This document shows, one piece after another, positions 8,309 to 36,173 of a DNA stretch of 64,000 bases. This stretch comes from an uncultured virus (IMG/VR IMGVR_UViG_2713897279_000003) (taxonomy: Duplodnaviria > Heunggongvirae > Uroviricota > Caudoviricetes). Below the pieces are notes generated by a model that saw nothing but the letters and a program-made list of their open reading frames with translations, did no database searches and was not told where the DNA came from. Made by a program: the position numbers and the translations under genes. The stretch lies in IMG/VR virus record IMGVR_UViG_2713897279_000003, one strand, 5' to 3'. How positions within the stretch are numbered: the first letter of the stretch is position 1; each line of letters opens with the position of its first letter.

Positions 8309-8755
8309 TTAAGCTGTTCCCATGATATTTTGCTTTCTATCTATATGTTCTTTTCTGTTTTCTAATATTTCTTTCGCTTTTGCTTCTGCATACCCCATAT
8401 AATCAAATAACCAGTCAGACTTAGCTAAAGATGCGTCTGTAATTTGATGCATTTTTGCAATCTGCTCTAGATTCTCTTCAATTTCTTTCTCATCTACTGA
8501 AAGACTCAAGCCATTTACTTTCTTATTCATTATTCTCATAAAACCAAACAACACAAACTCTAGTGTAGATGATCCAATGTTAGGATTTATTTTCTCTGAA
8601 GCCATATTGAATAAAATCTGATTTACCTTCAATTGTTCTTCTTCAGATAGATTTTTAAAGCTTTCTGCGTTAATCTCTCCTGATAGAATCTTAGATTCTA
8701 GTGTTTCCTCTTTTCTTACATCATCTGATACAAATGAAATACGTTCTCTAGCCAT
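8309..8755 (-). CDS. Hypothetical helical protein, last gene of block B (possible fibre assembly chaperone)
   Basis: 148-aa ORF with AAGGAG RBS. The chaperone role is inferred from position only. Confidence 0.75.
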   Translation of the reverse strand: MARERISFVSDDVRKEETLESKILSGEINAESFKNLSEEEQLKVNQILFNMASEKINPNIGSSTLEFVLFGFMRIMNKKVNGLSLSVDEKEIEENLEQIAKMHQITDASLAKSDWLFDYMGYAEAKAKEILENRKEHIDRKQNIMGTA

Positions 8756-8774
8756 ATTTAATCTCTCCTTTATT

Positions 8775-10397
8775 TTATGCCCATGTTAGAGCGTAGTTTG
8801 ACAACTTATATCCTGGTGGGATAATTGCTTTTACTTTTAACTGTGTTCCTGCTGGTACTGCTCCATTTTCAAAGTAGAATAACTTCTCTGTTTCAATTGG
8901 AATCCATGTTTCGCCATTGTCACTAGATATAAAGTAAGAAGGCTTTTCTGTAGATTCACTGACACTAAGATTACTTTCATATATCTCTACTTCAGTAATC
9001 GCCTGATCTACTTTATTATTCGTTCGAATAAACTCGATTTTTCTTGCAGACTTATTAACAGGAACGCTCCAAACAGTAAATTTACTTGAAGTCCTTGCTA
9101 CTTCAACACCATCTGCAAGAATTTTACCGCCATACATAGGCCAGTCAGTAGGAGTATAAATAACCATATCACCTATGTCACGACTTTTGTTAAATGTAAA
9201 TATCAGCCCATCATCCGGTCCATCTCCATCATCCCAGATATAGTCTGTTTTATTTCCATCTCCAAGTTGACTTATATTTCGATTTGAACGAATGTAACTT
9301 TTACCAGTAGGTTGGATGTCAGATTCCAATACGATATTTTTACTATCTACTCTTACATAGCTCACATTATAAGCTATACCATTTTTTCCGTTAGGGCTCT
9401 TATCAATAATTGTTTCTCCTTCATTTTCATGGAAATCATAGTAAGCCATGAGTCCTTCTTCATTGCCAGTCAATTCTACTCCAGCTGTATCTACAACTTT
9501 ACTCCATAAACGAATGTCAGATAATATTCCGTCTACATAATCGGATTTACTGTCACCATCTACTTCCTGACCAATTGACCACTCTCTAGCAGAACTTGGT
9601 ATAGTTGACCCTGACTGCCCACTTATTATAAGCTTACCATCTACATAGATTCGTAGCTCACTTTTATTTTCTTTGAGCTCAATTACATATCGAAGCTTAT
9701 ACTCTTTTCCAGTTTGCAATGATATTCCATCAATTGTTGTGTTTACTAATCGAAGGTGAACTCTGTCTCCATAATATCCGCATATGATTTTATCTTCATT
9801 GAATGCGACAAAGGCTTGGTTGCCCTTTGAATTCAATGTGACAGTTAATTCACATGTAAATGTTTTTGAAGCGGGTCCAGTTATCCATCCAGGAAAATCA
9901 ATTCGAGAACTCTTTCCATTAAACTTTAATCCATATCTCCGCTTGCTAGGTGCAGGTACCTTTCGATATTCTTCTGAAAGAAGAATTACCTTCTCTGGAG
10001 AACTCTGCAATGGTTCAGCCACTGTTTCAACGGTGCAAGCTAGTGCTGAGTTGGATTCAATGAATCCAAACTGTGTATTATGTGAATATCCTGAGCTCTT
10101 ATCTGCATCAATGCCACTTGTATCAAGGAAATCATCAAAAATCATATTCTGCATTTTATATTTTGTTGTTTTTGCAATACTGTTTAATTTAGCATGTGCC
10201 TTCATAATGTTCACTGCATCATGAACAATAAGCTTATTTGCTCGTAATGATAACCCTTCTAAATACTTTTCTAAGCTATCAATACGTTCTTTTACGTTCA
10301 TGAATTTACCTTCTACACCGTCAGATAATGTTTGATTACGTAAGCTAGATTCTGCATCCTTGGCTTTATTCGCAATACCATAACTAATAGTATCCAT
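8775..10397 (-). CDS. Appendage scaffold protein with inserted LamG/concanavalin-like and galactose-binding-like domains
   Basis: LamG signatures (GLKFNGKSSRIDF, IYVDGKL, GILSDIRLWS, LMAYYDFHE, DKSPNGKNG). N- and C-termini are shared with 23384..24463. Confidence 0.85.
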   Translation of the reverse strand: MDTISYGIANKAKDAESSLRNQTLSDGVEGKFMNVKERIDSLEKYLEGLSLRANKLIVHDAVNIMKAHAKLNSIAKTTKYKMQNMIFDDFLDTSGIDADKSSGYSHNTQFGFIESNSALACTVETVAEPLQSSPEKVILLSEEYRKVPAPSKRRYGLKFNGKSSRIDFPGWITGPASKTFTCELTVTLNSKGNQAFVAFNEDKIICGYYGDRVHLRLVNTTIDGISLQTGKEYKLRYVIELKENKSELRIYVDGKLIISGQSGSTIPSSAREWSIGQEVDGDSKSDYVDGILSDIRLWSKVVDTAGVELTGNEEGLMAYYDFHENEGETIIDKSPNGKNGIAYNVSYVRVDSKNIVLESDIQPTGKSYIRSNRNISQLGDGNKTDYIWDDGDGPDDGLIFTFNKSRDIGDMVIYTPTDWPMYGGKILADGVEVARTSSKFTVWSVPVNKSARKIEFIRTNNKVDQAITEVEIYESNLSVSESTEKPSYFISSDNGETWIPIETEKLFYFENGAVPAGTQLKVKAIIPPGYKLSNYALTWA

Positions 10398-10412
10398 TTC
10401 GCACCATCCTTT

Positions 10413-12404
10413 CTATAGCCATGAGTATGAAATAGCGTGAAGTTCTTCCCCGCTTTTCAGAACGACTTTAACAACTAACTCTTTACCCTCTGGGAGTTTA
10501 TCTAAACTAACCAGCTTATCTTTTTCAATTCTCATCCAATCTTCTCCGTTATTTCGGGACACATAATATTCTAATCCTTCCGATTTAGAGGGATCTTGTG
10601 TCATAATGTCTTGATCTTTATTTTCAAAGAATGCAAGTTCATTCATAGTACCATGCCAATTATTAGGAACACTGGTAATTGTTCGAATAGCCCAGTATCG
10701 ATAGGAACCAATGCTATCAAACTCATATTCTTTCGGTGTCGCAGTTGGGCTTCCATTTACTTCAATTGCACCATGATTTCCAGAGTAAACAATTTTCCAA
10801 TTTGTTTTATCATTGGAACAGATAACTTGAAATTCTACAAGACTAACGGAAGATATATATACCTTCTCAATATGTTTTGGACTATCTTTAAAATCTAATC
10901 CCACATAGTAGTTGCGCCAGTTGTAATAGTAATGTGCATGAGTTGCACTAAGTTCTTCATTCCCATCAAACACCTGCCAAGGCTGTGTTCCTTTGAAGTT
11001 AGTTATAGATGTCTCCCAAATAACATTTAAACTATTAGATGTATTGGAAGTCAGAGGGGCTTCAGGATATTTTATCCATCCACTTTCTCTCGTTGCTTTT
11101 CCGGATATCCCTGACAATAGAAATAGTTTTGGCATCATATCTAATTGCTCGCTTACTGTAATAAATGTAGCTGGTTGTTGAGCATTACTTTGCTTCACCT
11201 TATGCTTCTTTTTATCGTATGTAATATTCTCAGATTTTTCAACGTCAATACCTGAGTTATCACCAAAATCATCTATAATCATATCTTTCATGTTATAGCG
11301 TTTTTTATCCAAAAGAGAATTTACCCTTAAATTATGCTTATTGAGATTTATATGGATACTCGTTTCTAAGTCTGATACACGATTAGGCAATGGGCGGATT
11401 TTGTATTTAATTTTAATAGAATCAATAGTTGGAAGAACTTCTCCATTTTTAAACTGCACTTTTAATTTCAGTTTCTTTCCATTCCTTGACTTAATATTCT
11501 TCCCATCCAATTCTATAAAATCAGAATCACTATTAGTCTTAGTTGAAACTTTAATATTTCCTGTCCCTACAACTTCAATAGCCGATAGCTCTAAGAAGTC
11601 ATTTCCTAAATCAATCTCTTGGGATATCCATTCTCCTTGATTAGTATATTCTAATGAAGGGCCAAGCATTTTTAATTCACCGATCTCTAATGATTTATCT
11701 CCATTGTTAGCAAGAACTGTTAATCTATAATATTGATAAGCTGTTCTATTTTGCGTGAAAAATCTTTTGGGATTTCCTGCTTTCCATCCTGATATGGCAG
11801 CTTCTAGTCCTATCATATTCCATGTCTCTCCATCATTGCTTCCATGGAATTTAAAATCTCTTGGTGCTCTAGTTTCTTCTAATCCATTGTCACCAAAGAC
11901 AGGGTGTATTTCATATGATGTAACTACTACTGGGCTATCATATTTATATTGTAACCATGTGTCTGATACAAAGTCTTCTACAAACCATCTGTCTTCCCAA
12001 GAATTCGTGGTACCATTGAATGCTCGATATGCAGGCCCGTTTGAAAGTGATTCTGCACTTGCACTTACTACTCCACTTGGTGCTGTATTACTTGTCATAA
12101 CTGGAATTAAATTAACGTTAGACTCTCCGCCGCTTTCTGTTTTATTTAATGAAAGCACACCTGTATCTGCATTTAGTCCAATAAAAGTTCCCTTTGCAAA
12201 ATCATCTTTTGTGTCAATGATAATTTCTTTATCTATCAATCCTTGTCGTTTCTTTTCTAATTCATCTAGACGAGCTTTAACATTAGCAAAAGTTCCTTTT
12301 ATATCCTTGTCTCCATTTTTGTAGTCACCTACACCTAGACGCTTATTCAGTGAGTCTAAATTTTTTCTTCCTTGCATTGCTTTAGAATAACTTACGATAT
12401 CCAT
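10413..12404 (-). CDS. Appendage scaffold protein with two F5/8 type C (discoidin)-like domains
   Basis: IPVMTSN...AYRAFNG...WLQYKY...FHGSNDGETW...YQYYRL...EIGELKM, plus a second copy (WQVFDG...SNDKTNW...YRYWAI). Paralog of 24479..25897. Confidence 0.85.
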   Translation of the reverse strand: MDIVSYSKAMQGRKNLDSLNKRLGVGDYKNGDKDIKGTFANVKARLDELEKKRQGLIDKEIIIDTKDDFAKGTFIGLNADTGVLSLNKTESGGESNVNLIPVMTSNTAPSGVVSASAESLSNGPAYRAFNGTTNSWEDRWFVEDFVSDTWLQYKYDSPVVVTSYEIHPVFGDNGLEETRAPRDFKFHGSNDGETWNMIGLEAAISGWKAGNPKRFFTQNRTAYQYYRLTVLANNGDKSLEIGELKMLGPSLEYTNQGEWISQEIDLGNDFLELSAIEVVGTGNIKVSTKTNSDSDFIELDGKNIKSRNGKKLKLKVQFKNGEVLPTIDSIKIKYKIRPLPNRVSDLETSIHINLNKHNLRVNSLLDKKRYNMKDMIIDDFGDNSGIDVEKSENITYDKKKHKVKQSNAQQPATFITVSEQLDMMPKLFLLSGISGKATRESGWIKYPEAPLTSNTSNSLNVIWETSITNFKGTQPWQVFDGNEELSATHAHYYYNWRNYYVGLDFKDSPKHIEKVYISSVSLVEFQVICSNDKTNWKIVYSGNHGAIEVNGSPTATPKEYEFDSIGSYRYWAIRTITSVPNNWHGTMNELAFFENKDQDIMTQDPSKSEGLEYYVSRNNGEDWMRIEKDKLVSLDKLPEGKELVVKVVLKSGEELHAISYSWL

Positions 12405-12425: not shown

Positions 12426-13883
12426 TTAGGCCCATGCATAAGAGATTGCTGTTAAGATTGCTGAATCTGTTGGCAAATTAATGCGGATTTTAAGTTGCTT
12501 ACCAGATTGTTTTGAGACATCTATTACATCCCCTGATTGAAAGGCATTCCAAGTGCTTCCGTTATCTAAAGAATATTGGAATGTACATTCTTGATGATCT
12601 GCTGCTATGACAAGTATTTTGCGATATGCAGGTAACTCTTCTGTATCAGTTTCTATTATACCAGTCCCACGATATAATTTTTCTTCTGAATTATAGAGAT
12701 TGCTACGTGAAATAGATGCCTTGAATACCTTATCTTCTTCTGAATAAACTAGTATCTTAGAATTCTTCGGTAATGCTTGCCATTGCTCTGCTGTAATGCC
12801 ATTCAATGACACCATGCCATGGTCTTTAAACACTTGATCTGTTACAGGTGCAGGTCCAACATCTATCCATGAATCAGATAACTTTTTAATCATTCCATCT
12901 GATTCAATGAGGAATCTTGTATTATTTACCTCCACATACATACGAATTGCAAACTCATATTGAATAGATATGCTTGGTCTTATATCAACATCACCATCGC
13001 TGCCACTTGGCACCCTGTAATTGAATGATTTCACACTTATTGGAAGTGACCCATCATTACTATAAATATCCCTTGCGACAGGATTTTCTTTTTCACTTAG
13101 TGCTGTTGCAGAAAAACCAACATAGTATGATTTTCCTTTTTCTAAAGCTACTGGCGAGGTGAATTCACTTCTCACCCATGTTCCTTTTTTGTCTGTGACA
13201 GTTGTTTGCCCTTTTGCAAGTAAGCCATTTCCATCCCATATCTTTGCTGTTCCAGTATTAGAAGAGTTAATTGTTGCTGGATGAACAAGCCACTCCATAG
13301 CTGTGACTACTACATCTTGTTTTACACTGATATAGTTTGCTATTGTACTCATACTATTTCCCCATATTGCATTTGCATCTGGACACATTTCAAAATACTT
13401 TCTTGGCTTCCCAATAGTAAAACCGACGCCAACCATAAATCTATTTCCCGTGGCACTTGCTCCAATTGCCGGCTCTTTTCCTGACCCGTAATTCGCACCA
13501 CTTGTTCCACCAAGAGAAGTCATTGCCTGATACAATTCATTTGTAATCGGATTTTCGTTTTCTGTAAAATAAAATTTAGCATCTTCACTTGATGACCTAA
13601 ACACAATTAAATACACTTTTCCTTTTTTAATTTCCACGCCATTTGCATTAATATATGTCTGAGAATTTCTTGCTGATGGAGTTGCTTCTACTAGTTTAGA
13701 TAGTATTTTTCCTGTGCTTTCTTCTACTTCCCATAATGACGCTTTATCCCAAGAAGAAGGAGTTTCTGTCCTTAGATATAATTCTCCAATATTGAAATCC
13801 TTTAATGCCTTAAATGAAGATCCCCTCCATGTTTTTGCGCTATCGCTTGAAATACTCGTAGTTGCTGACCATAAATCTGGCAT
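12426..13883 (-). CDS. Appendage protein: two DUF4082-like beta domains plus conserved C-terminal scaffold module
   Basis: KIWDGNGLLAKG...GTWVRSEFTSPVALEKGKSYYVGF. The last ~165 aa are closely similar to 25919..26977. Confidence 0.8.
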   Translation of the reverse strand: MPDLWSATTSISSDSAKTWRGSSFKALKDFNIGELYLRTETPSSWDKASLWEVEESTGKILSKLVEATPSARNSQTYINANGVEIKKGKVYLIVFRSSSEDAKFYFTENENPITNELYQAMTSLGGTSGANYGSGKEPAIGASATGNRFMVGVGFTIGKPRKYFEMCPDANAIWGNSMSTIANYISVKQDVVVTAMEWLVHPATINSSNTGTAKIWDGNGLLAKGQTTVTDKKGTWVRSEFTSPVALEKGKSYYVGFSATALSEKENPVARDIYSNDGSLPISVKSFNYRVPSGSDGDVDIRPSISIQYEFAIRMYVEVNNTRFLIESDGMIKKLSDSWIDVGPAPVTDQVFKDHGMVSLNGITAEQWQALPKNSKILVYSEEDKVFKASISRSNLYNSEEKLYRGTGIIETDTEELPAYRKILVIAADHQECTFQYSLDNGSTWNAFQSGDVIDVSKQSGKQLKIRINLPTDSAILTAISYAWA

Positions 13884-15541: not shown

Positions 15542-16816
15542 TTAAATACTTATCCAAGCCCCATCTTGATAAACTCTTATGACTTCTCCATCTTCAACAA
15601 GTAACAATTGTTTTCGCACAGTAAAGGCTGAACTCTCCTGATATGCAGATGTAGCTGTATTATTATCTACTGCTCTGACTCTTATTTTAGCATTTGTAAT
15701 ATTTAATCCATCGGGAAGTTTATATTCTACTGATACATCTGTTGTCTTTGAAGCAATAGGCACCCAAGAAGATTCGTTGTAGAAATCTACATCGTATGTA
15801 ATTGCCTCCCCCTCTGGATCCGTAGATGCATCCCATGATACTGTAATGGTTTCACCTGTTAGGTATACACTATTTGTACTTGCTGTTACTTTTAGATTTG
15901 TTGGCACTGTTGGTGGCATACTTCCTAATTCAACAAGTTGAATTTTAACATATCCATCACCAGATTTTCCCGTTGTTACAGATGTGTTTTCCCCGGATAT
16001 ATAGGAACCGCCGCCGCCACCTCCATATCCATCATTGTAACCGCCGCCACCTCCAGAGTAACCACCGCCACCGCCGCCAGGATAATTACCATTACCACCA
16101 CCGCCGCCAAATCCACCTACACTTGCGTCAGAACGTGCATAGCCACCTAGTCCGCCACTAATAAAAGCTTGCCCACCTTGTACAATGCTATTTTTTCCAT
16201 CCGCTTTCCCCCAGCTTACAACTGTCTGTGTTGCATATTCAACAGATTGTCCGTCACTATAAAAGCCACCGCCTGATCCAGCCGGATAATGTCCAGAAGG
16301 AACCGATTTCCCACCTTGCCCTGATGAACCTCCATATGGAGTCATAGAACCGTAAGATGATGTCCCTGAAGTGGATACGCTCCCATCGCTTCCATAGCCG
16401 CTGGAATTATTATTTGAACCACCGCCACCGCCACCGCCGACAATTAATGGTGTAGTCGATGATAAAACACTCCCTTTGGCTACAAAGCTACCACCACCGC
16501 CACCACCACCTTGTGGATAGCCCATACCTTGCTGTCCTACTAATACTTGAATTACGTCATCTTGTTTTAGTTCAATTTTCCCACTAGCAATTGCACCATA
16601 TCCCCCCCTTGCGGTAAGGCTTGAATTTGATGTTTTCCCACCTTGTGCACCTGCTGCTGTAATCTGATATTTCCCACTCATAGGAACTATCCATTTCATA
16701 ATTGTCCCTGACCGACCAATGTTCGTTGGGTTAAAATGAAGAGTATCATTTAAATTTAGTGTTTCTGGGTAATTAGTAGCACCAGAATACGTGTTATTAA
16801 TAACATGTGTTGCCAT
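15542..16816 (-). CDS. Glycine-rich receptor-binding-like protein with Fn3 domain and C-terminal motif
   Basis: GAQGG, PLIVGGGGGGG, GGFGGGGG, GGGGGGSY, then WDASTDPEG...IRVRAVD. Paralog of 27833..29125. Confidence 0.85.
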   Translation of the reverse strand: MATHVINNTYSGATNYPETLNLNDTLHFNPTNIGRSGTIMKWIVPMSGKYQITAAGAQGGKTSNSSLTARGGYGAIASGKIELKQDDVIQVLVGQQGMGYPQGGGGGGGSFVAKGSVLSSTTPLIVGGGGGGGSNNNSSGYGSDGSVSTSGTSSYGSMTPYGGSSGQGGKSVPSGHYPAGSGGGFYSDGQSVEYATQTVVSWGKADGKNSIVQGGQAFISGGLGGYARSDASVGGFGGGGGNGNYPGGGGGGYSGGGGGYNDGYGGGGGGSYISGENTSVTTGKSGDGYVKIQLVELGSMPPTVPTNLKVTASTNSVYLTGETITVSWDASTDPEGEAITYDVDFYNESSWVPIASKTTDVSVEYKLPDGLNITNAKIRVRAVDNNTATSAYQESSAFTVRKQLLLVEDGEVIRVYQDGAWISI

Positions 16817-16831
16817 GTAGCTTCCTCCTTT

Positions 16832-17953
16832 TTAAATAAACTCCCAGTTTCCATTTTTATAAGACTTATTTATATTTCCATCTTTAATTACATACAATTG
16901 CTTTGCTACTGAGAATATATTACTTAGCACATATTCAGATGCGCCATTTTCACTGTCATTTGCACGAATCCGTAGTTGTGCTTTATCTGTTGTAACTGAT
17001 GGAAGGATACAATCATAATTTGTATCTATAATATTTTTTGCAATACTTATCCATGCTGTACCGTTATAGAAATCCATTTCATATGCAATAGAATTCCCCT
17101 CTGGATCAGTTGATGCAGTCCATTCTAATGGAACAATCTCATTAGACTGATTCATACTCTTAGAGATTGGCTGTTTTGTAAGTGATGGTTCTGTTGGTGG
17201 TTCATTTGCAGAGCCGACAAATGTAATTTCAATTCGCCCATGACCTCTATTATAGCCTGACATAGATGACTGATTACTTCCTTTATTAAAAGAACCACCA
17301 CCACCAGCAGCATAGATAGACGCATTTCCACCACCGCCACCGCCCGTGTATCCACCGCCACCACCGCCAGCAGAGAATCCTGCACCGCCGCCTCCGTATC
17401 CACCATAATCAGTGGTATTATGACCATTGCCCCCAATTCCCCCATTAATAAAAGCATTTCCTGCATATCCATAGCCACTTCTATTTCCATCGCCATAGAA
17501 TCCACTGCCACCCGATCCGCCTGTAGAGCTTCCGCCATTCCCTCCATATCCTTCTTTGGTAAATCCAGCTCCTGAAGAATCTCCTACAGAAGATGTTCCA
17601 GGTCTAGCTTCGGCAATAGTATTTATATATTTATTAAATCCACCACCGCCACCTACTGTTCCATATTGAGAATTTGTATATGCCCCTCCCATTTGTCCAA
17701 TTAATATTTTTATTACTTGCCCTTTTTTTAGATTAAAGTTACCTTGTACTTTTGCCCCTTTTCCACCACTATTTCCACCTTCTGCTCCATAAGCCTCTAT
17801 TTTATACTCTCCATCATTTTGAACAATCCATGATATTATATCTCCTGAGGGTCCAGTTCTAGTATTACTAATCAGCAATACATCCCCACGCTGTAAGCTA
17901 GATGGAAATGTTACTACTGCACTCCCTGGCTGATTTACTATATATCTTGCCAT
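16832..17953 (-). CDS. Glycine-rich receptor-binding-like protein with Fn3 domain
   Basis: Gly-rich domain. The C-terminal ~135 aa are nearly identical to 29140..30357. Confidence 0.85.
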   Translation of the reverse strand: MARYIVNQPGSAVVTFPSSLQRGDVLLISNTRTGPSGDIISWIVQNDGEYKIEAYGAEGGNSGGKGAKVQGNFNLKKGQVIKILIGQMGGAYTNSQYGTVGGGGGFNKYINTIAEARPGTSSVGDSSGAGFTKEGYGGNGGSSTGGSGGSGFYGDGNRSGYGYAGNAFINGGIGGNGHNTTDYGGYGGGGAGFSAGGGGGGYTGGGGGGNASIYAAGGGGSFNKGSNQSSMSGYNRGHGRIEITFVGSANEPPTEPSLTKQPISKSMNQSNEIVPLEWTASTDPEGNSIAYEMDFYNGTAWISIAKNIIDTNYDCILPSVTTDKAQLRIRANDSENGASEYVLSNIFSVAKQLYVIKDGNINKSYKNGNWEFI

Positions 17954-17968
17954 GCTGTTTTCTCCTTT

Positions 17969-18796
17969 CTAAATAGTTTTCCATATCCCATTCTTGTACG
18001 ATTTCACTGTTTCCCCATCTCGTATGAGCAACATCTTATCGTATATAGAAAAGTCTTGGCTTTCTTTATATGGTGATTTATTTCCGACTGTATCTTTGGC
18101 TTGCACTCTTATCTTTGCATTATCTGTATTAATATGACGTGGAATTATAACTGAAATTGATATATCTGATACACTGTTTGCTACTGATAGCCATGCACTG
18201 CCATCATAGATATCAATATCGTAAGTGATGGGAGCCCCGATTTGACTCGTAGAAGCACCCCAATCAAGTTGTATACTTTCACTTGTTAAATATAATGTAT
18301 CTTGTATCCCTGTGATTTCTCCTGGCTGTGTTGGTGGGTCATTATCTAACTTATAATCGACACGACCATTAAATATCCTTCGTTCACTAAATCCACTACT
18401 TAATGTAGAAAAACCTGCTCCATTTATAAGAGTGACATCATCATTAGAAAAGCTAGTGTCTCCATTTGAATATGCCATATTACTGCCAGCTGGAGTAACC
18501 AATGCAAAACCTTTTATCTCTCCTGATTTAATCTTAACTTTCAATTTGGCTGGTATCTCAGTATATACTTTATTGTTATCAATAACATTCGTTGGAACAT
18601 TAGATACTATTTTAACCCATCCACCTGCTCCTTTTGCGTATCCTCCGTCCCGCACATAAATATCAACATAAGCAACTCCTCTAATTTTGAAGTAGGTTGA
18701 AAATCCTGTCACAAAAATATCTTTATTTGCTGTAACAGAAAACATAACTCCACTATTTCCATTTCCACCTTTATTAATAGTTTTAATATATGGCAT
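17969..18796 (-). CDS. Variable beta-rich N-terminal domain plus Fn3 and C-terminal motif
   Basis: ATG 18796 follows AGGAGG. The C-terminal half is shared with 30373..31347 and the N-terminal half is unrelated. Confidence 0.8.
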   Translation of the reverse strand: MPYIKTINKGGNGNSGVMFSVTANKDIFVTGFSTYFKIRGVAYVDIYVRDGGYAKGAGGWVKIVSNVPTNVIDNNKVYTEIPAKLKVKIKSGEIKGFALVTPAGSNMAYSNGDTSFSNDDVTLINGAGFSTLSSGFSERRIFNGRVDYKLDNDPPTQPGEITGIQDTLYLTSESIQLDWGASTSQIGAPITYDIDIYDGSAWLSVANSVSDISISVIIPRHINTDNAKIRVQAKDTVGNKSPYKESQDFSIYDKMLLIRDGETVKSYKNGIWKTI

Positions 18797-26977: not shown

Positions 26978-27820
26978 TTATTTCACCTCTACTTTCTTTA
27001 TATTTGTTATCGATGCAAGATTTAATTCAGATACCTTACCTGAACCTAAATCCACAGTATTCGAGAAAGATAATTCTTGTTTTAATTCCCCTGCACCTGA
27101 AGAAGCAATAATTTTCATACTATCAGATTCACATGTATCTATTACCATATCATGCATTTTATATTTTTCTGATTTAAGTAATGCATTACTTTTAAAGTTG
27201 AGTTTCGCCATATTAATTGCATTGATTCGCTCTAGCTCTTTTAAACGTCCCTCAATCGTTAAGCTGTTTGTTTCAATCTTGATACTATGTAATTTAGGTG
27301 AGTTACTTACAACTGGCACTGTCTCATATGCTAATTTATCAATTAATAGCGTATCTGTAACTGCATGTAAGTCTAAATAATATGTTAATCGTAATTTCAT
27401 TCCAGATAAAAAAGGCTTCCATACTTCCTGTGTAACGCCATTAAATGTAGCAATATCCATACCCTTTGACTTTACATCATCTAAATCACTTATATCAACA
27501 GGATGCCAAGATACACCATTAAATGCTTTCCATGTTGTACCACTGTCATTAGATGCAATTATCTTGAGGACACTTTCATTTTGTACAGTTCCCATTAATG
27601 TAAAGGACTTAATAGGCTTCTCAAATATCATATCTGTTTCTTGCATAATTAATTGTCGCTTTGGTATAGCAGTTACATTTACAGACGCACTATTAATGCT
27701 TGTATCTTTTGTGAGAACTAGTATTTTAATATTATCTGATTCTAATTGATTCCATGCTGATTCAGGAATTACACTCAAATCTGTCATACCATGTTGCTTA
27801 AATTCATCTACTGTGGGCAT
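26978..27820 (-). CDS. Appendage scaffold ('socket') protein with coiled-coil segment
   Basis: Near-identical to the C-terminal 280 aa of 13884..15524. GGAGGA spacing favours ATG 27820 over 27826. Confidence 0.85.
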   Translation of the reverse strand: MPTVDEFKQHGMTDLSVIPESAWNQLESDNIKILVLTKDTSINSASVNVTAIPKRQLIMQETDMIFEKPIKSFTLMGTVQNESVLKIIASNDSGTTWKAFNGVSWHPVDISDLDDVKSKGMDIATFNGVTQEVWKPFLSGMKLRLTYYLDLHAVTDTLLIDKLAYETVPVVSNSPKLHSIKIETNSLTIEGRLKELERINAINMAKLNFKSNALLKSEKYKMHDMVIDTCESDSMKIIASSGAGELKQELSFSNTVDLGSGKVSELNLASITNIKKVEVK

Positions 27821-27832
27821 ATTCATTCCTCC

Positions 27833-29125
27833 CTATATGGTTTGCCATGTGTTATTTTTATATGTTTTTATTATATCACCATCTTGAATAAGTAATAATT
27901 GTTTTCGTACAGTAAAGACTGCGCTCTCTTGATATGCAGATGCAGCTGTTTTATCATCTACTGCTCTTACTCTTATTTTAGCATTTGTAATATTTAATCC
28001 ATCGGGAAGCTTATATTCAACTGATACATCTGTTGTCTTTGAAGCAATAGGCATCCAAGAAGAGCCGTTGTAGAAATCTACATCGTATATAATTGCATCC
28101 CCCTCTGGATCCGTAGATGCATCCCACGATACTGTAATGGTTTCACCTGTTAGGTATACACTATTTGTGCTTGCGGTTACCTTTAGGTTTGTTGGCACTG
28201 TTGGCGGAAGACTAGCAAGCTGAGTCAATTGAATCGTAACATAACCATCTCCTGCATTATATCCTTTCATTGTAAATGCTGTAACTCTATCCGTATTTGC
28301 AGCTGAGCCACCGCCACCGCCGCCATATGAATTTTCACGTCCAGCAGCACCACCGGAATAACCACCACCACCTCCGCCGCCAAAATAACCATTACCAGCA
28401 CCGCCACCAAATCCACCTATTGCACCCTGACTTTGCGCAGATGAGTATGATAATCCTCCTTCTCCTCCTTTACGGAAAGCTCGCCCGCCTTGAGTATAGT
28501 TTCTTGAGTTCAATGCTGTTTCCCAACTTACTATAATATTATCTGTACCATACGAAACAGATTCTCCATCTCCATAGAATCCACCACCACCACCGCCAGG
28601 ACAGGAAGCAGCAGGTGCAGCTCTTCCTCCATTTCCATTAGTTCCACCAACTGGTGCAGAAGAATTTGGACCAAGTGTTCCTGATAATCCATTTGATGCA
28701 GTTGCTCCATTTCCAGTTCCACCAGAACCAGAACCAGCGCCACCACCACCACCGGCAACAATAATCATCTCAGATGAAGATAACAGTGACCCGATTGCAG
28801 TAAAGCTACCGCCACCGCCGCCACCACCATATGTATAACCCTTTCCTTGTTGGCCAACTAAAATTTGAACAACTTCATCTTTTTTCAAGGCTACTGTTCC
28901 AGTCATGATTATACCTTGTCCACCAATCCCTCTTCCATCTCCACTTCCTCCTTTTGCTCCTGCTACCGTAAAATTATATTTCCCTGAGATCGGAACAACC
29001 CATTTCATAATTGTTCCTGAACGACCAGTAGATGTTGGATTAAATTGTAGAATATCATTTAATGCCAATGACTCTGGATACTTTGTAACACCTGAATATG
29101 CACTATTAACCTGATGCGTTACCAT
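27833..29125 (-). CDS. Glycine-rich receptor-binding-like protein with Fn3 domain
   Basis: GAKGG, IIVAGGGGG, GGFGGGAG, GDGYVTI. The Fn3 domain is nearly identical to that of 15542..16816. Confidence 0.85.
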   Translation of the reverse strand: MVTHQVNSAYSGVTKYPESLALNDILQFNPTSTGRSGTIMKWVVPISGKYNFTVAGAKGGSGDGRGIGGQGIIMTGTVALKKDEVVQILVGQQGKGYTYGGGGGGGSFTAIGSLLSSSEMIIVAGGGGGAGSGSGGTGNGATASNGLSGTLGPNSSAPVGGTNGNGGRAAPAASCPGGGGGGFYGDGESVSYGTDNIIVSWETALNSRNYTQGGRAFRKGGEGGLSYSSAQSQGAIGGFGGGAGNGYFGGGGGGGYSGGAAGRENSYGGGGGGSAANTDRVTAFTMKGYNAGDGYVTIQLTQLASLPPTVPTNLKVTASTNSVYLTGETITVSWDASTDPEGDAIIYDVDFYNGSSWMPIASKTTDVSVEYKLPDGLNITNAKIRVRAVDDKTAASAYQESAVFTVRKQLLLIQDGDIIKTYKNNTWQTI

Positions 29126-29139
29126 ATAGTTTCCTCCCT

Positions 29140-30357
29140 TTAAATAGATTCCCAGTTTCCATCTTTATAAGTCTTTCTTATCTCTCCATCTTTAATTACA
29201 TATAACTGTTTTGCTACTGTAAATACATTACTCAACGAATATTCAGATGCTCCATTTTCACTGTCAGTTGCACGTACTCGTAGTTGTGCTTTATCTGTTG
29301 CAACAGATGGAATAATGCAATCATAATTTGTATCTATAATATTTTTTGCAATACTTGCCCATGTAGAGCCATTATAGAAATCTATTTCATATGCAATAGA
29401 ATTCCCCTCTGGATCAGTTGATGCAGTCCATTCTAATGGAACAATCTCATTAGACAGATTCATACTTTTAGAGATTGGCTGTTTTGTAAGTGATGGTTCT
29501 GTTGGTGGTTCATTTGCAGAGCCGACAAATGTAATTTCAATTCTTCCGTGACCACTATTTACACCTGGAGCATTATCCTGTTTACTTCCTGCGTTATAAG
29601 AGCCACCACCTCCCGCTGGAAAAGCCGCTGCATTTCCGCCACCAGTACCACCAGTATAACCACCTCCCCCACCGCCAGCAGAGAAACCACCGCCTCCTCC
29701 ACCGCCAAATCCACCTACAGTTATACCTTTTCCTTCAGTCCAAGATATTCCGCCTTGTCCACCAGAAACAAAGGAGTATCCATTCTTTCCTCCATATGCT
29801 GTTGAACTTGTGCCATCACTATAATATCCTCCTGCTCCCCCGGCACCAGTACCACCACCTGCATTTCCTCCTTGACCTTCTCCCCTTGATGATGGCCCGC
29901 TAGGAACAACACTGGCTAATTTTGTTATTTCACCTTGATACCCTGGCTTTGGATTGTTTGCACTATATTGAGTAACCCCTCCTCCTCCACCAGCAATTAA
30001 AAATGGAGTAGTTGTACCCAAAGAAATAAATGTGCCTCCTCCACCGCCGCCTTGATAGTAGTTATAAGTGTCTAATTCATAAGAGCCCATTTGGCCTATT
30101 AACAACCTAAATACTTGATCTTTTTTTAGAGTGAATTCGCCTTTCATTCTTGCTCCTTTTCCTCCGTACTGCAACTCACCTCCTTGTGCGCCCCACGCTT
30201 CCATTACATATATGCCATCATATGGGACTTTCCACTGAAGGATAGTTCCATTCTTACCAGTACTAGTATTATTAAAAATCATTTTATCTCCACGCTTTAA
30301 GTTAGTTGGAAATGCTGATGTTGCACTACCTGGTTGATTTATTGTATAAGTTGCCAT
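29140..30357 (-). CDS. Glycine-rich receptor-binding-like protein with Fn3 domain
   Basis: WGAQGG, GGKGARMKGEF, FLIAGGGGG, GGGGSYN, GHGRIEIT. Confidence 0.85.
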   Translation of the reverse strand: MATYTINQPGSATSAFPTNLKRGDKMIFNNTSTGKNGTILQWKVPYDGIYVMEAWGAQGGELQYGGKGARMKGEFTLKKDQVFRLLIGQMGSYELDTYNYYQGGGGGGTFISLGTTTPFLIAGGGGGVTQYSANNPKPGYQGEITKLASVVPSGPSSRGEGQGGNAGGGTGAGGAGGYYSDGTSSTAYGGKNGYSFVSGGQGGISWTEGKGITVGGFGGGGGGGFSAGGGGGGYTGGTGGGNAAAFPAGGGGSYNAGSKQDNAPGVNSGHGRIEITFVGSANEPPTEPSLTKQPISKSMNLSNEIVPLEWTASTDPEGNSIAYEIDFYNGSTWASIAKNIIDTNYDCIIPSVATDKAQLRVRATDSENGASEYSLSNVFTVAKQLYVIKDGEIRKTYKDGNWESI

Positions 30358-30372
30358 TGCATCTTCTCCTTT

Positions 30373-31347
30373 CTAAATAATTTTCCATATCCCATTCTTG
30401 TACGATTTCACTGTTTCCCCATCTCGTATGAGCAACATCTTATCGTATATAGAAAAGTCTTGGCTTTCTTTATAAGGTGATTTATTTCCTGCTGTATCTT
30501 TCGCTTGCACTCTTATCTTTGCATTAGCCGTATTTATATTACTTGGAACTACAATCGGAATTGATATATCTGATACGTTAGTTGCTACAGGCACCCATGA
30601 ACTTCCGTTGTACACATCAATATCATAAGTAATGGAATCTCCCTCTTGGTCAGCAGAAGCTCCCCAACTTAATTTTATACTTTCACCAGCTACATATAAT
30701 GACTCTTGAATTCCTGTAATATCACCAGGCTGTGTTGGCGGTTGATTCATCGTGACGATGGCAATACTAATACATTTGTCTGCGTTTGATACTGATGAGA
30801 TACCTGTTGTCCCTCCACCTGACATCCACTTATGTCCAGCAGAAGAAGAGGTAAAACTAACTATTCTAGTATTCCATGTCATTGACATTCCTGATGGAAT
30901 GGACATTGTTGATGACGAATGAGTAGTAAAAAATGATACATATAAAAAATCCATATCAAGCGAAATAGACACTGAACTTCCAGCATCCGGTCTACTATAA
31001 GATGTTTTAATTCCTAATTTTGTAGGCTGTCCACTATCAGTTGAAAAGTGTCCGATATTTACAGCAAACTCATCCTTAAAGTCAAAATCAAATACATACG
31101 ATGCAGGTTCATTACTAGTAGCTACCTTATACAAGACGGCATGAGAGTTGTATTTTACTCCTTTGGTATCTTCTAGTTTCTCCCAACCAGATGGATACCT
31201 AGTGATGGTTTCCCTACTACTCGTATGATTATCTGCTATAATATGTGCAACTAACAAGTCTCCTTCTAAGATTATCCCTGACGGACGAGAAACCGTTAAA
31301 GAATTTGTTAATGCACCTGCTGATGATTTTCCCTTAAAAATTATCAT
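30373..31347 (-). CDS. Beta-module protein with Fn3 and C-terminal motif
   Basis: PSGIILEGDLLVAHI...PSGWEKL...LYKVATSNEPASY module. C-terminus is shared with 17969..18796. Confidence 0.8.
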   Translation of the reverse strand: MIIFKGKSSAGALTNSLTVSRPSGIILEGDLLVAHIIADNHTSSRETITRYPSGWEKLEDTKGVKYNSHAVLYKVATSNEPASYVFDFDFKDEFAVNIGHFSTDSGQPTKLGIKTSYSRPDAGSSVSISLDMDFLYVSFFTTHSSSTMSIPSGMSMTWNTRIVSFTSSSAGHKWMSGGGTTGISSVSNADKCISIAIVTMNQPPTQPGDITGIQESLYVAGESIKLSWGASADQEGDSITYDIDVYNGSSWVPVATNVSDISIPIVVPSNINTANAKIRVQAKDTAGNKSPYKESQDFSIYDKMLLIRDGETVKSYKNGIWKII

Positions 31348-31374
31348 AATATTTATCCCCTTAATAAAATGTTT

Positions 31375-32628
31375 TTAAATAGATTTCCATACTCCATCTT
31401 TAAATGACTTTACTATGTTGTTATCTTGAATTAGAAATAACTTTTGTCTTGTTCTGAAAATAGCACTATACGAGTAATCGGAATATGCTCCTTTATCATC
31501 TTTCGCCCTTATCCTAAATTGAGCCACATCTGTATCTTTGTTTGTAATATTGAACCTTCTACTCGTGACCTTTATATCCTTTTCAAGAGAATACCAGTTT
31601 GAGCCATCTACAGTAAATTCCATTTCATATGAGATAGCATCGCCTTCTGGATCAGTGGAAGCATCCCAATTAATCTCAATAGAATCTCCATTTAAGCAGA
31701 GGCTGTTCTCTACAATTCCTAATACATTACCTGGTTTTGTTGGTGGTTGACTTGTAGGCGATAGCAATGTAATCTCTATTCTTCCGTGACCATTATTTAC
31801 ATCCCCACTATTATTTTGATTAGCCCCTATATTGTATGAGCCGCCACCTCCACCTCCATCTTCATAACCACCACCACCACCAGAATATCCGCCACCGCCG
31901 CCACCACGATGACCACCAGCACCACCACCACCAAATCCTCCGCTTATATTATTCCCTTGTCCTCCAGTTCCTCCATATCCACCATTTAAATAAGATTTAC
32001 CACCAGAACTAGAGCTTGCAGATGCGTTGCTGCAGTTGTTACCACCGTTTGTGTAAAATCCACCGCCGCCTGCACCATAACTACAAGATGATCCAGTTCC
32101 GCCATTTGTTGTTCTAGTACCAGAAGAACCTAAAGTTCCAGCACCGCCACCGCCACCATCAATACCACCTCGACCTGCTTGTGAATGGCCAAATGAACCA
32201 GTGTCCCCATTAATTGATGTGACGCCTCCAGAAGCTCTATTTCGACAATGACCCCCGCCACCGCCAGCAACAATTAATGGTATATTATTTCTTAAAACAA
32301 ATGTTCCCCCTCCGCCACCGCCAGAGTCGTTTGAACTACTTCCATCCTTATAGTTTTCACCCATTTGTCCAACTAATATCTTTATAACCTCATCTTTTTC
32401 TAAGACAAAATCCCCTTGCATTCTAGCGCCTTTTCCTGCATATGCTCCTCCGCCTTTTGCCCCCCATGCTTGCATGCGATATGAACCAGAATAAGGAACC
32501 TTCCAAGTTATAATTGTGCCACTATATCCTGTGTTTGTATTATTGATGACGATTATGTCTCCACCTTGCAGGCTAGATGGAAATGAAACCATTGCACTCC
32601 CTGAATTATTTGCTATATAAGTTGCCAT
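31375..32628 (-). CDS. Glycine-rich receptor-binding-like protein with Fn3 domain
   Basis: ATG 32628 follows GAGGAG. PLIVAGGGGG, GGFGGGGAGG. Ends LIQDNNIVKSFKDGVWKSI. Confidence 0.85.
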   Translation of the reverse strand: MATYIANNSGSAMVSFPSSLQGGDIIVINNTNTGYSGTIITWKVPYSGSYRMQAWGAKGGGAYAGKGARMQGDFVLEKDEVIKILVGQMGENYKDGSSSNDSGGGGGGTFVLRNNIPLIVAGGGGGHCRNRASGGVTSINGDTGSFGHSQAGRGGIDGGGGGAGTLGSSGTRTTNGGTGSSCSYGAGGGGFYTNGGNNCSNASASSSSGGKSYLNGGYGGTGGQGNNISGGFGGGGAGGHRGGGGGGYSGGGGGYEDGGGGGGSYNIGANQNNSGDVNNGHGRIEITLLSPTSQPPTKPGNVLGIVENSLCLNGDSIEINWDASTDPEGDAISYEMEFTVDGSNWYSLEKDIKVTSRRFNITNKDTDVAQFRIRAKDDKGAYSDYSYSAIFRTRQKLFLIQDNNIVKSFKDGVWKSI

Positions 32629-32645
32629 AATAACTCTCCTCTCAT

Positions 32646-32679
32646 AAAGAAAGGCGACCATTCAAAGAATGAATCGCCT
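32646..32679 (-). terminator. Intra-operon hairpin/weak terminator
   Basis: Identical copy of 20809..20842. Confidence 0.6.
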
Positions 32680-33919: not shown

Positions 33920-34963
33920 TTATTCTATTTTGGTAATCGACTTATATTTTGAACGATTAATTGGGATTGCAAATAACTTCCCATCTGTGTATGCTTCATT
34001 TTTAATACCATCTATTTTATGAATGGCATTTACTTTTACGTCAGAACCTACAGATGATAAGAATTCATTTAATACTAGTTTTGTTTCTGGATTTTTTTGG
34101 TCAAACTCAAATACTTGCTTCTCCCCCATTTCTGTACCACCATCAATGATTGCACGGAACTTTAAGAATCTTTTTTGTGGAAGCTTACTTGAATTAAATA
34201 GTATATATGGACCAAATGTAATACCATCATCAGATTCAGCATATTCAACATCTACAGATCCACCAAGCTTAAATGAAAGATAGTTTGTATATCCAGATAA
34301 AGTTTGAAGTACATAACGCTTATTCGAACCATTTTCCCAAGTGTTGATATAAAAAGGCATAGAGGTTGCTTTAGTGTCACTTGAATTTAATCCATATCCA
34401 CTAAAATAGAATTCTATCTTATTTCTTTTAATGCGAATAGCAACAGGGAATCTATTAGATGAATTACTATAGTGTCCATAATATATCCAAATTAATGTAA
34501 CATTTTCATCAGAATAATATCTGCTATCAACTATCTTAGAATCAACACCATTAGAACCTTCAAAATCAAATGATATAACAGGATAAAAGCTGCCATTCAC
34601 GTAAGAGCGAGAAAAACCAGAATCGTAAGAAGCATTACTAAAGCTAGTAATTTCTTTATTGAAAAATTGTATACTACCTTCTGTGCTGATACCAATCCAT
34701 TTAGTAAAAGGGAAATCCTTTGAAAGCAAAGGTGTATGCATAATTAAATTCCCAATGCTATCATCACCCATTGCTGTACCAAATTTTGCATACGCCGGGT
34801 TCGTTGTAGTGCCAAACAAACCTAATGATATTTTTTCTTCATTAGCCCATTCAACCATTTTATTATACGCAGATGTAGACTCTAAATCGGTACTTAATTC
34901 ATAAGCACCGCTCATGACTTTAGAACCTTTACTTGTCTCATATGAAAAAGGTATACTTACCAA
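33920..34963 (-). CDS. Unique N-terminal beta domain plus the SDDGITF...LPQKRFLKFRA module
   Basis: TTG start with AAGGAGGTG RBS. The last ~110 aa are paralogous to 32678..33904 and 20841..22046. No block B counterpart. Confidence 0.8.
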   Translation of the reverse strand: MVSIPFSYETSKGSKVMSGAYELSTDLESTSAYNKMVEWANEEKISLGLFGTTTNPAYAKFGTAMGDDSIGNLIMHTPLLSKDFPFTKWIGISTEGSIQFFNKEITSFSNASYDSGFSRSYVNGSFYPVISFDFEGSNGVDSKIVDSRYYSDENVTLIWIYYGHYSNSSNRFPVAIRIKRNKIEFYFSGYGLNSSDTKATSMPFYINTWENGSNKRYVLQTLSGYTNYLSFKLGGSVDVEYAESDDGITFGPYILFNSSKLPQKRFLKFRAIIDGGTEMGEKQVFEFDQKNPETKLVLNEFLSSVGSDVKVNAIHKIDGIKNEAYTDGKLFAIPINRSKYKSITKIE

Positions 34964-34976: not shown

Positions 34977-35318
34977 TTAATAATTCCTTTGAATTTTTAC
35001 ATCTAATATCTTTTGCATACCGCTTCCTAAGTCTATTACTTCAGATTCCCATACTCCTGATCCTACAAATGCTTGTGGTCCAATTTGACGAAGTTGAATG
35101 CTACCATCTTTGAACTCTGCATCATTAAATTGCCCCTTATTTAGATCCACTTCATATATTTCTTTTACTTGTAGATTTGACGCTTGAGCTTCTATCCAAT
35201 CTAACCTTTCATCGACAGAGTTAAATTGACCTTCCGCTCCCTCTCCTACTACCGTCTCATTAAGCTGCTTAATATCCTGAAAGACTTTACTTGCTTTACT
35301 GAAAGAAATAATCTCCAT
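34977..35318 (-). CDS. Small scaffold protein (coiled segment plus G.W.S...DLG half-domain)
   Basis: MEIISFSKASK...FNSVDERLDWIE...GSGVWESEVIDLG. GGAGGG RBS. Confidence 0.8.
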   Translation of the reverse strand: MEIISFSKASKVFQDIKQLNETVVGEGAEGQFNSVDERLDWIEAQASNLQVKEIYEVDLNKGQFNDAEFKDGSIQLRQIGPQAFVGSGVWESEVIDLGSGMQKILDVKIQRNY

Positions 35319-35329
35319 CTTAGTCCCTC

Positions 35330-36106
35330 CTATAGTACAATCACTGTAACAGATGTACCAACAGATTCATTTTTACTCGTATCCACTGATTTAAGTGTAA
35401 ATGTATGTTCTCCATTTGAAATGCCATTCAATACAATGGATGCACGTTTTGTGGTATCTAGTGGCGTCTTAATATTATCTATATAAACATTAATCTTATC
35501 TAAGTCAGCATCTGTAGAATTCACCCACTCCAGATTTACAACGCCTTGAGATGGAGAACTACCAACTAACCCTTTTATATCTGCAGGTGCCGTTACGTCC
35601 ACCTCTGTTCTAGTTTTAATACCTGTGATATTTCCTTTAGAATCATAAGAATAAGTTTTTGTTACAGTAACTTTTTGTCCTTTATTATTTGCAAATGTTT
35701 GAACTGATTTACTTAATTCACCTACCGCTAAATCTCGGTAAGCATACTCTACTATCATTTCTTTATCGCCTGTTGTAGTATGACGTATAATGTTTCCATA
35801 TTGCTCATCATACTCGAATTTTTCATCATAATCCCCAGATTCTGTGGTGCCTTTCAAGATTGCTGATTCTAAATCTCGTTTTATATTCTCAATACGCTGT
35901 ATTGTTAATATACCACCATTCTCATAACCTTGAATCAAGTCGTCAACAACAGCTCTTGTATTTGTATCAAACAAATCACTATTAATATGTGTAAAGCGTC
36001 CATAAACTGTATCATAGGTACCCATCAACTTAATAATGTCATCAATAATTTCGATTAAACTATCTTCTAAATCATACTTCTGTATCTTCGTTAAACTTCT
36101 ATTCAT
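35330..36106 (-). CDS. First gene of block A: YD-like hairpins plus Fn3
   Basis: Near-identical to 22411..23187. Confidence 0.85.
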   Translation of the reverse strand: MNRSLTKIQKYDLEDSLIEIIDDIIKLMGTYDTVYGRFTHINSDLFDTNTRAVVDDLIQGYENGGILTIQRIENIKRDLESAILKGTTESGDYDEKFEYDEQYGNIIRHTTTGDKEMIVEYAYRDLAVGELSKSVQTFANNKGQKVTVTKTYSYDSKGNITGIKTRTEVDVTAPADIKGLVGSSPSQGVVNLEWVNSTDADLDKINVYIDNIKTPLDTTKRASIVLNGISNGEHTFTLKSVDTSKNESVGTSVTVIVL

Positions 36107-36173
36107 AATCGTTTCTCCTCATTTTTTTACTTATTTTTGTGATAACATATAATCAAGGCGTTTAAATCTCGTT

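Follow-up and report, generated by a model that had tools for sequence, protein, structure and literature searches.

Why would a phage tail locus carry the same block of adhesin-like genes twice, and how might the two copies be used? The question is raised by a 64,000-nucleotide (nt) stretch of DNA from an uncultured tailed virus (IMG/VR record IMGVR_UViG_2713897279_000003, hereafter referred to as the window), in which a baseplate J-like gene (J) is followed immediately downstream by two gene cassettes, A (23384-36106) and B (8309-23187). We named the cassette genes A1-A11 (from 35330 down to 23384) and B1-B11 (from 22411 down to 8775), and called the gene at 8309-8755 gene 12 (Table 1). The region would represent the module for host adhesion at the distal baseplate of a Bacillus cereus-group myovirus that is temperate and plasmid-like. 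We consider it fairly probable that this J-adjacent adhesin module was duplicated in tandem, is co-expressed late as two adhesin-like sets and diversifies by module swapping.

The tandem duplication and its junction

We compared the two blocks (23188-36145 versus 8309-23187) using blastn and detected 17 matches, mostly collinear at an offset of ~13 kb. All 11 gene pairs named in a preliminary description of this DNA were recovered (blastn and blastp), confirming the collinear tandem duplication proposed there. The best segments reach 93.2% identity over 918 nt (26972-27889 versus 13878-14795), 90.4% over 1096 nt (35011-36106 versus 22093-23187), 88.6% (25717-26364 versus 12224-12871) and 86.5% (24152-24636 versus 10086-10573); another, shorter segment matches at 86.8%, and the remaining ones at 65-77%. 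The scaffolds are thus similar in DNA, with the best segments at 86-93%, but the earlier term "near-identical" is too strong. At the protein level, blastp similarity extends over the full length of pairs 1, 3, 6 (29140/16832, 58%) and 7 (27833/15542, 61%), and is confined to one end of pairs 4 (31375/18811, C-terminal 125 amino acids (aa), 51%), 8, 9 and 11 (23384/8775, N-terminal 141 aa, 73%). Block A additionally holds an extra paralogue of gene 3 (A3x), which had been left unpaired. Exact DNA matches of at least 30 bp between the cassettes number 28, the longest being 245 bp. This longest tract (35379-35623 / 22460-22704) lies within A1/B1, whose remaining sequence differs by 5.7%; the tract spans the Fn3 part and has the look of a recent gene conversion.

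The event that produced the second block is recorded in the gap between A11 and B1 (23188-23383, 196 bp), which consists of a dead piece of the 5' end of gene 12, the last ~40 nt of J and the J-1 spacer with its ribosome-binding site. The remnant noted earlier at 23364 proved to copy ~25 codons from the start of gene 12 and is dead. Its start codon is ATA in the window and ATG in three relatives, and an in-frame TGA stands at codon 10 in all four two-cassette genomes compared, namely the window, contig C2 of the nearest genome (G001:C2), NC_011774.1 and NZ_CP132202.1. In a 230-nt alignment of the junction, the window differs from the other three genomes at 3 positions, and those three are identical. 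Given that the same junction with the same dead remnant occurs in 4/4 two-cassette genomes, the reconstruction shows that one illegitimate crossover, joining the 5' part of gene 12 to the 3' end of J, duplicated genes 1-11 in tandem in a common ancestor. The ancestral state is one cassette, J-(genes 1-11)-12. A perfect palindrome with an 8-bp stem was also observed in the A/B junction (23224-23243), where the original J-1 spacer is not palindromic.

Contigs of 1330 nt from three sequencing runs of three studies (X1, X2 and X3, the first being possibly the source sample) align to 23131-24460, showing 0, 0 and 1 differences, respectively. The contig of run X4 covers 23263-24022 only, and the junction is therefore bridged by contigs of three of the four runs. 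That an assembler joined blocks of two strains, as the preliminary description had considered, is extremely improbable: such a chimera, in whose favour nothing was found, is ruled out by the junction and dead remnant common to all four two-cassette genomes, three complete plasmid records among these, and by the contigs of X1-X3 that cross the junction.

We further compared the locus with single-cassette relatives. G002, a 120.8-kb IMG/VR provirus record with flanks 82-89% identical to the window, has one A-like cassette followed by an intact gene 12, and NZ_CP097261.1 has one cassette that ends after seven genes within a rearranged 260-kb plasmid. Nucleotide distance matrices of gene 1 gave 0.5-2.7% within A1, 0.1-0.5% within B1, 5.6-7.4% between A1 and B1, and 9.8-13.3% between either of them and G002 or NZ_CP097261.1, which fits a duplication later than the split from these relatives. 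More distantly, five plasmids of B. licheniformis, B. paralicheniformis and B. halotolerans carry one gene-1 copy each. One of them, a B. licheniformis plasmid, has seven genes only between J and a "low copy number virion structural protein"; there, genes of group I (genes 3-7, described below) are absent, protein 1 lacks Fn3, and the gene-11 homologue encodes 200 aa with no lectin insert. Gene 12 has a counterpart at the corresponding place of a B. licheniformis plasmid, with 56% identity. An Oceanobacillus contig also holds a single cassette, in which a 380-aa gene joins a gene-2-like N-terminal part to a gene-3-like C-terminal part. Among 104 scored genomes of the family, strong A1 matches were found only in G001 and G067, with two copies each (G067 may be a record already counted). 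A survey of the protein-1 family returned 5 loci, two of them on one 145,187-bp B. thuringiensis plasmid, a possible duplicate that was not counted as new. Together, the relatives show staged growth, from a minimal 7-gene cassette without inserts (B. licheniformis plasmid) to 12 genes and then to 24 after one tandem duplication.

Protein scaffolds, binding domains and module swapping

The cassette proteins fall into two groups with common C-terminal parts. In group I, genes 3-7 have a common C-terminal module, which in genes 4-7 consists of Fn3 followed by a conserved ~22-aa tail; the tail motif recurs at the fusion point inside long position-8 proteins. Six proteins (A4, A6, A7, B6, B7 and B8) contain 16-23% glycine, and within the A4-A7 array the ALK-type Gly-rich N-domain is found in A4, A6 and A7. 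Against the ALK_LTK_GRD family (PF12810; cut-off 24.5 bits), B8 scored 99.6, B7 29.5 and A6 28.0 bits, whereas A7 fell below at 16.4, and A4 and B6 were assigned only via their 40-42% identity to B7. In a model of B7 built from a 35-sequence alignment (predicted local distance difference test (pLDDT) 87.5), residues 21-297 match the human ALK TG domain (Z 28.4, root-mean-square deviation (rmsd) 2.3 Å, 229 aa, 35% identity; Foldseek E 2.1e-11), followed by Fn3 at 298-403 and a C-terminal hairpin tail. The B7 Gly-rich domain also matches cnidarian LTK-like, Branchiostoma TRIM-like and Bacteroidota type IX secretion system (T9SS) proteins (E 1e-18 to 1e-42), so that members of this domain family occur in phages, bacteria and animals alike.

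Group II (genes 8-11) has a common C-terminal domain with an Asp-box-like motif, and an N-terminal motif is common to genes 2, 10 and 11. Its inserts comprise discoidin (A11 and B10, weakly A10), LamG (B11) and DUF4082 (B9). In an AlphaFold2 (AF2) model of protein 1 (A1; pLDDT 81), N-terminal helices and YD-like beta hairpins precede a C-terminal Fn3 domain (170-258, Z 12.9). The Fn3 domains of A1 and B1 are identical, the proteins differing at 15 of 258 positions, and standalone homologues (~170 aa) of the protein-1 N-terminal part are common. A search of solved structures by sequence with A1, B8, B4 and A3 gave nothing below E 0.007, NCBIfam yielded no informative match among the 24 cassette proteins, and in the ESM Atlas A8 matched unnamed clusters only and gene 12 had no usable match.

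The preliminary description had counted roughly 20 putative ligand-binding domains. We recognized 11 (6 ALK-type Gly-rich, 3 discoidin, one of these below the cut-off, 1 LamG and 1 DUF4082), with a further 7 variable N-domains without an assigned fold; 20 is thus an upper bound, and only 7 domains reach the Pfam gathering score. Among the swapped pairs proposed, discoidin versus LamG (A11 versus B11) was borne out by Pfam, and DUF4082 in B9 (gene 12426) scored exactly at the cut-off, but Pfam found no discoidin domain in its supposed partner A9 (gene 25919).

Divergence is distributed unevenly along the duplication. Synonymous divergence (dS) between A and B is 0.18 in gene 1, 0.22 in the gene-8 core and 0.44 in the C-terminal part of gene 9, and 0.65-1.75 in all other segments; A2 lies closer to gene 2 of G002 (7.7-11.9%) than to B2 (19-24%). 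Because of this uneven dS and of the position of A2, much of the interior of cassette B may derive from a more distant donor, or A and B may have been partly homogenized in genes 1 and 8. A similar contrast appears between the window and G001: dS is 0-0.01 for the backbone (J, B1, B4, B11, gene 12 and the gene at 5528-7321) versus 0.54 in A10, 0.94 in A11, 0.21 in B7, 0.13 in A3 and 0.14 in A9. Moreover, the A cassette of G001 holds a B8-type gene (99% aa identity, dS 0.07), an A/B hybrid arrangement.

The constant scaffolds with swapped binding domains described earlier are supported and extended by variants at two positions. The position-8 core occurs either on its own (280 aa) or behind an N-domain, which is discoidin (416-426 aa), Gly-rich (557 aa) or of another type (586-588 aa); the position-11 scaffold occurs without insert, with discoidin or with LamG; and the middle array of group I counts roughly 3-7 genes per cassette across the six genomes compared. 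At the same time, the ratio of nonsynonymous to synonymous divergence (dN/dS) between A and B was 0.06-0.56 in 15/15 comparisons, and the A1 and B1 lineages stay distinct in 4/4 two-cassette genomes. Exchange of modules between strains and between the two cassettes is shown, with the conserved segments apparently serving as recombination sites, and the adhesin repertoire therefore changes much faster than the backbone.

Expression and use of the two cassettes

Both cassettes lie on one strand, 16 of the 24 cassette genes have a Shine-Dalgarno-like site in front of them, and the gaps between genes mostly measure 0-27 nt. No terminator-like site was found on the coding strand at the A/B junction or between the cassettes, and the first one with a clear T run after the cassettes is the hairpin at 7046-7066. 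Promoter-like sites were fewer than in shuffled sequence and speak neither for nor against an internal promoter. A look-up of RNA sequencing runs returned none that covers the region. We propose that both cassettes are read as one late operon, and that each particle, or the particle population, would receive two sets of baseplate-anchored adhesin-like proteins. The conserved end segments would act as anchors that dock the proteins and would double as crossover points for module swapping, while the exchangeable ALK-type TNF-like/Gly-rich, discoidin, LamG and DUF4082 domains may bind host cell-surface structures or polymers. The role of gene 12 is probably not set-specific, because only one copy survives.

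Two programmed mechanisms of variation were considered and rejected. An invertible switch of the Mu G or P1 C type finds neither long inverted repeats, with only 17 short inverted pairs present (20-25 nt, 76-91% complementarity), nor a recombinase among the 49 window proteins scanned. A diversity-generating retroelement finds no reverse-transcriptase domain among the same proteins, although a template/variable repeat pair was not specifically searched for.

The preliminary description had left the choice between two parallel branched fibre sets and a recombination reservoir, and the parallel sets, whose branched form is conjectural, fit better, given the Shine-Dalgarno sites, the short gaps, the lack of a terminator between the cassettes and the dN/dS values. 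The reservoir reading, according to which one cassette is functionally needed and the other is a module store moved by gene conversion or unequal crossover, nevertheless captures part of the data. Alleles do move between cassettes and strains, as the B8-type gene in the G001 A cassette illustrates; the 28 exact matches would offer sites for such exchange, genes are damaged in B2 (window) and B7 (NC_011774.1), and single-cassette relatives exist. Yet the cassettes form one operon-like block of full-length genes with ribosome-binding sites, dN/dS stays below 1 throughout, and both cassettes are kept in 4/4 genomes of the subclade. Silent, promoterless or 5'-truncated donor copies are absent, as is any inversion or site-specific switch, to judge from the inverted repeats and recombinases looked for. 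We therefore regard a mere reservoir as improbable. Somewhat less so, though still unlikely, is an alternative use of the two sets, in which both cassettes are expressed and each baseplate position or particle takes the A or the B set via the A1/B1 adaptor, giving a mixed particle population. The confinement of the A1/B1 differences to residues 1-157, next to an identical Fn3, would fit one common and one set-specific contact, and the two lineages remain separate in every two-cassette genome; the N-domain fold of protein 1, however, found no match in fold searches whose hit lists were filled by Fn3.

The cassette proteins might instead have no receptor role, serving as accessory appendages that bind matrix, soil particles or other virions (like the corkscrew fibres of 0305phi8-36) or as non-virion proteins. 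As described in PMC2147016 and PMC2222632, a related lineage makes large extra baseplate fibres and its particles aggregate. Discoidin, LamG and Fn3 are folds that bind carbohydrates or proteins in general. The post-J position is, however, the usual place of fibre genes. According to PMC9608196, the Gly-rich/TNF-like domain forms the receptor-binding end in gp24 of cyanophage Pam3. The fast allele turnover against a stable backbone is moreover typical of host-recognition genes, an argument that PMC2147016 makes likewise for its own hyperplastic region. A non-receptor role thus appears quite improbable.

A more specific form of the preferred reading, two co-expressed sets of adhesin-like proteins, can be put forward tentatively. 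In this "adhesin rack", a universal C-terminal plug (Fn3 plus the 22-aa tail, ...DG...K.Y..G.W..I) would dock interchangeable heads on a scaffold of proteins 1, 2, 3 and 8. Natural fusions, namely tail plus protein-8 core in B8 and the gene-2 N-part plus gene-3 C-part in the Oceanobacillus relative, would then mark contacts, each cassette would present ~3-7 heads, and the duplicated scaffold genes would form a second rack on the same baseplate. If true, phage host range would be assembled in a cellulosome-like fashion that can be extended freely, with the ALK-type domain in reversed polarity.

Several observations weigh against the reading of two functional adhesin sets. The putative anchor role of the conserved ends is drawn solely from their conservation and from the natural fusions. 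In Pam3, an N-terminal helical bundle is the anchor and the Gly-rich domain is distal and C-terminal, whereas in the cassettes the Gly-rich domain is N-terminal, followed by Fn3 and the tail. When protein 1, the supposed adaptor, was compared with wedge proteins of the P2 gpI/T4 gp7 type, no Pfam match appeared and fold searches gave only Fn3 (170-258), residues 1-169 being barely covered. In B2, one nucleotide is missing near 22367, within an A run that follows codon 11; this deletion takes the first 11 codons out of frame and leaves 101 aa versus 112 aa in three relatives; the extra base is present in the X2 and X3 contigs while X1 agrees with the window, so that the deletion is either a real frameshift or a homopolymer error. 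In cassette B of NC_011774.1 (L033), the B7-type gene is split into fragments of 140 and 125 aa. These two damaged genes imply that not every cassette gene is indispensable. Furthermore, the comparison rests on six related genomes, all kin, and the sole demonstration of induction, cited in PMC8026635, concerns pBtic235, a distant relative.

Genomic context and known systems

The window is that of a contractile-tail module (Pfam, PHROG), with a 973-aa tail sheath, three tube-like paralogues and small baseplate genes. The cassettes follow the J-like gene, with the tail-sheath gene and a probable tape measure upstream, and the tail-locus placement given earlier thus holds. Every long open reading frame (ORF) of the window is on the minus strand. 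The wedge gene J, whose last ~40 nt and downstream spacer were copied at the junction, is listed with the cassette features in Table 1.

Table 1. Coordinates of the cassette genes and adjoining features (positions in the window unless another record is named)
Feature	Position	Strand	Remarks
Baseplate J/gp47-like wedge gene	36174..37046	-	Pfam Baseplate_J E 4.8e-5; PHROG baseplate wedge 1.8e-13
A1, first cassette gene, 258 aa	35330..36106	-	AF2 model; 94% identical to B1
A2, 113 aa	34977..35318	-	N-terminal motif common to genes 10 and 11
A3x, extra gene-3 paralogue	33920..34963	-	only C-terminal ~116 aa common; blastp 72% to B3 C-terminus
A3, 408 aa	32678..33904	-	57% identical to B3
A4-A7, four group I genes	27833..32661	-	variable N-domain, Fn3 and conserved ~22-aa C-terminal tail each
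A8, 282 aa, bare conserved core	26978..27826	-	94.7% identical to B8 C-terminal 282 aa
A9, 352 aa	25919..26977	-	C-terminal 162 aa 80% identical to B9; N-domain differs
A10, 472 aa	24479..25897	-	weak discoidin match; N- and C-terminal ends conserved
A11, 359 aa: N-anchor (putative), discoidin insert, C-terminal Asp-box-like domain	23384..24463	-	Pfam F5_F8_type_C 31.7 bits
Dead 5' remnant of gene 12	23291..23364	-	lower boundary approximate
Copy of J-gene 3' end and J-1 spacer, with B1 ribosome-binding site	23188..23290	-	
B1, 258 aa, A1 paralogue	22411..23187	-	15 aa differences, all in residues 1-157
B2, frameshifted (or homopolymer error)	22062..22399	-	longest ORF 22062-22367
B3, 401 aa	20841..22046	-	blastp
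B4-B7, four group I genes	15542..20808	-	ALK-type Gly-rich in B6, B7; other N-domains in B4, B5
B8, 557 aa	13884..15557	-	Gly-rich domain and tail motif (252-272) fused to A8-like core (276-557)
B9, 485 aa, DUF4082-like N-part	12426..13883	-	Pfam 28.4 bits, equal to the cut-off
B10, 663 aa, discoidin domain	10413..12404	-	Pfam F5_F8_type_C 38.8 bits
B11, 540 aa	8775..10397	-	A11-type N- and C-terminal scaffold, LamG insert; Pfam Laminin_G_3 33 bits
Gene 12, 148 aa	8309..8755	-	intact only once, after cassette B
Terminator-like hairpin	7046..7066	-	downstream of gene 7077-7709
Distant single-cassette relatives	L036 (NZ_CP021670.1) 15986-22184; L043 9875-20200		

Upstream of the baseplate genes lie two giant genes. 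The product of the first (38284-44709, minus strand) is 2141 aa long, carries a Lysozyme_like domain (residues 1808-1923) and is probably the tape measure, and the second (44715-50057, minus strand) encodes 1780 aa without a Pfam or PHROG match. Three adjacent paralogous genes (52346-54934, minus strand; 292, 294 and 255 aa) adjoin the tail-sheath gene on its downstream side and all match phrog_9206 ("major head protein"). Beyond the cassettes, between gene 12 and the terminator-like hairpin, stand a gene for a YiiX/C92-type permuted papain-like hydrolase (7733-8230) and a gene for a small Fn3 protein (7077-7709), which relatives keep in the same place. Within 1-7321 lie a gene homologous to that of the "low copy number virion structural protein" and a giant ORF, longer than 1881 aa and running beyond the window's edge, which is a further candidate adhesin because PA14 and GLEYA domains occur in its G001:C2 relative.

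In the nearest genome, G001, the same DNA lies on a second contig (C2) of 145,187 bp with flanks 96-99% identical to the window. This contig encodes a ParM-like protein, a DnaB-like helicase, a primase, a single-stranded DNA-binding protein (SSB), a DNA polymerase III (Pol III) fragment and an amidase. Plasmid records matching the window come from B. cereus G9842 (NC_011774.1, 140 kb) and two B. thuringiensis strains, and between the tail sheath and ORF139 of Bacillus phage 0305phi8-36 identity is 33%. Because of this gene set, these plasmid matches and the sheath relation, the element (roughly 140 kb) is classed here as a plasmid-like prophage (phage-plasmid) from the B. cereus group and as a distant relative of the 0305phi8-36/pBtic235 lineage. 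A phage collection without near relatives gave no DNA match to either block (megablast) and no match to cassette gene 1 at E 1e-5 (tblastn with B1), and tblastn with B10 and B7 returned single-domain matches only (discoidin, Fn3), in isolated phages. As reported in PMC4219350, pG9842_140 has no validated replicon. The main text of PMC8026635 makes no mention of G9842, NC_011774 or CP001187, although its supplementary tables may list such plasmids.

Phages with several receptor-binding proteins, with hyperplastic fibre regions or with ALK-like Gly-rich fibre tips are already known, and the locus can be set beside several such systems. The G segment of phage Mu and the C segment of P1 hold inverted copies of fibre genes; a site-specific invertase switches between them, so that only one set is expressed at a time, and a wider host range is the result. 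The cassettes resemble them in having two fibre-gene sets with constant and variable parts in one genome, but differ in being direct tandem repeats of 11 genes, with neither long inverted repeats nor a recombinase found among the window proteins scanned. Phages CBA120, phi92 and PhiK64-1 carry multiple receptor-binding proteins, encoded by individual genes with N-terminal adaptor domains, and fibre genes are recombination hot spots. Schizotequatroviruses are described as having seven fibres (PMC12028318). In the present locus, by contrast, a whole multi-gene block was duplicated once, and the anchors are apparently mostly C-terminal.

Closer in lineage, 0305phi8-36 and BtI1/pBtic235 have a comparable sheath, three tail-tube-like paralogues, a giant lysozyme-bearing protein and a ParM-like protein, and the 0305phi8-36 lineage likewise keeps the post-J gene order while domains are swapped. 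In the accounts given in PMC2147016 and PMC8026635, pBtic235-like elements measure ~235 kb and 4-6 adhesion proteins are reported, with no cassette duplication described there. In the literature, we found no report of an 11-gene adhesin block that was doubled once in tandem and has kept its junction, of a 7 to 12 to 24 gene series, or of reversed-polarity Gly-rich adhesins with a common C-terminal tail; nothing was found on the fibre locus of this plasmid family, and a link between PF12810 and phages was found only in the Pam3 paper (PMC9608196). This phage-plasmid family is little studied, and scaffolds that take domain swaps at defined places (positions 8 and 11) may be useful for understanding host range in the B. 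cereus group.

At the level of single proteins, there is a likeness to Pam3 gp24, described in PMC9608196 as a receptor-recognising myovirus fibre end with a TNF-like domain and a glycine-rich lattice domain, similar to the ALK extracellular region; the S16 gp38 adhesin is cited alongside. The TNF-like/Gly-rich domain pair is common to gp24 and six cassette proteins, but Pam3 has one such fibre gene and the cassettes have six paralogues. The resemblance extends to the human ALK/LTK TG domain (PDB 7nx3, 7lrz and 7ls0), to which B7 aligns with Z 27.8-28.4, rmsd 2.2-2.3 Å and 35-36% identity over 226-229 residues, both belonging to PF12810, whereas the cassette domain stands in a phage structural context without EGF or kinase parts. 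Few phage ALK-like TNF-like/Gly-rich domains are known, and this locus adds many paralogues in a different architecture.

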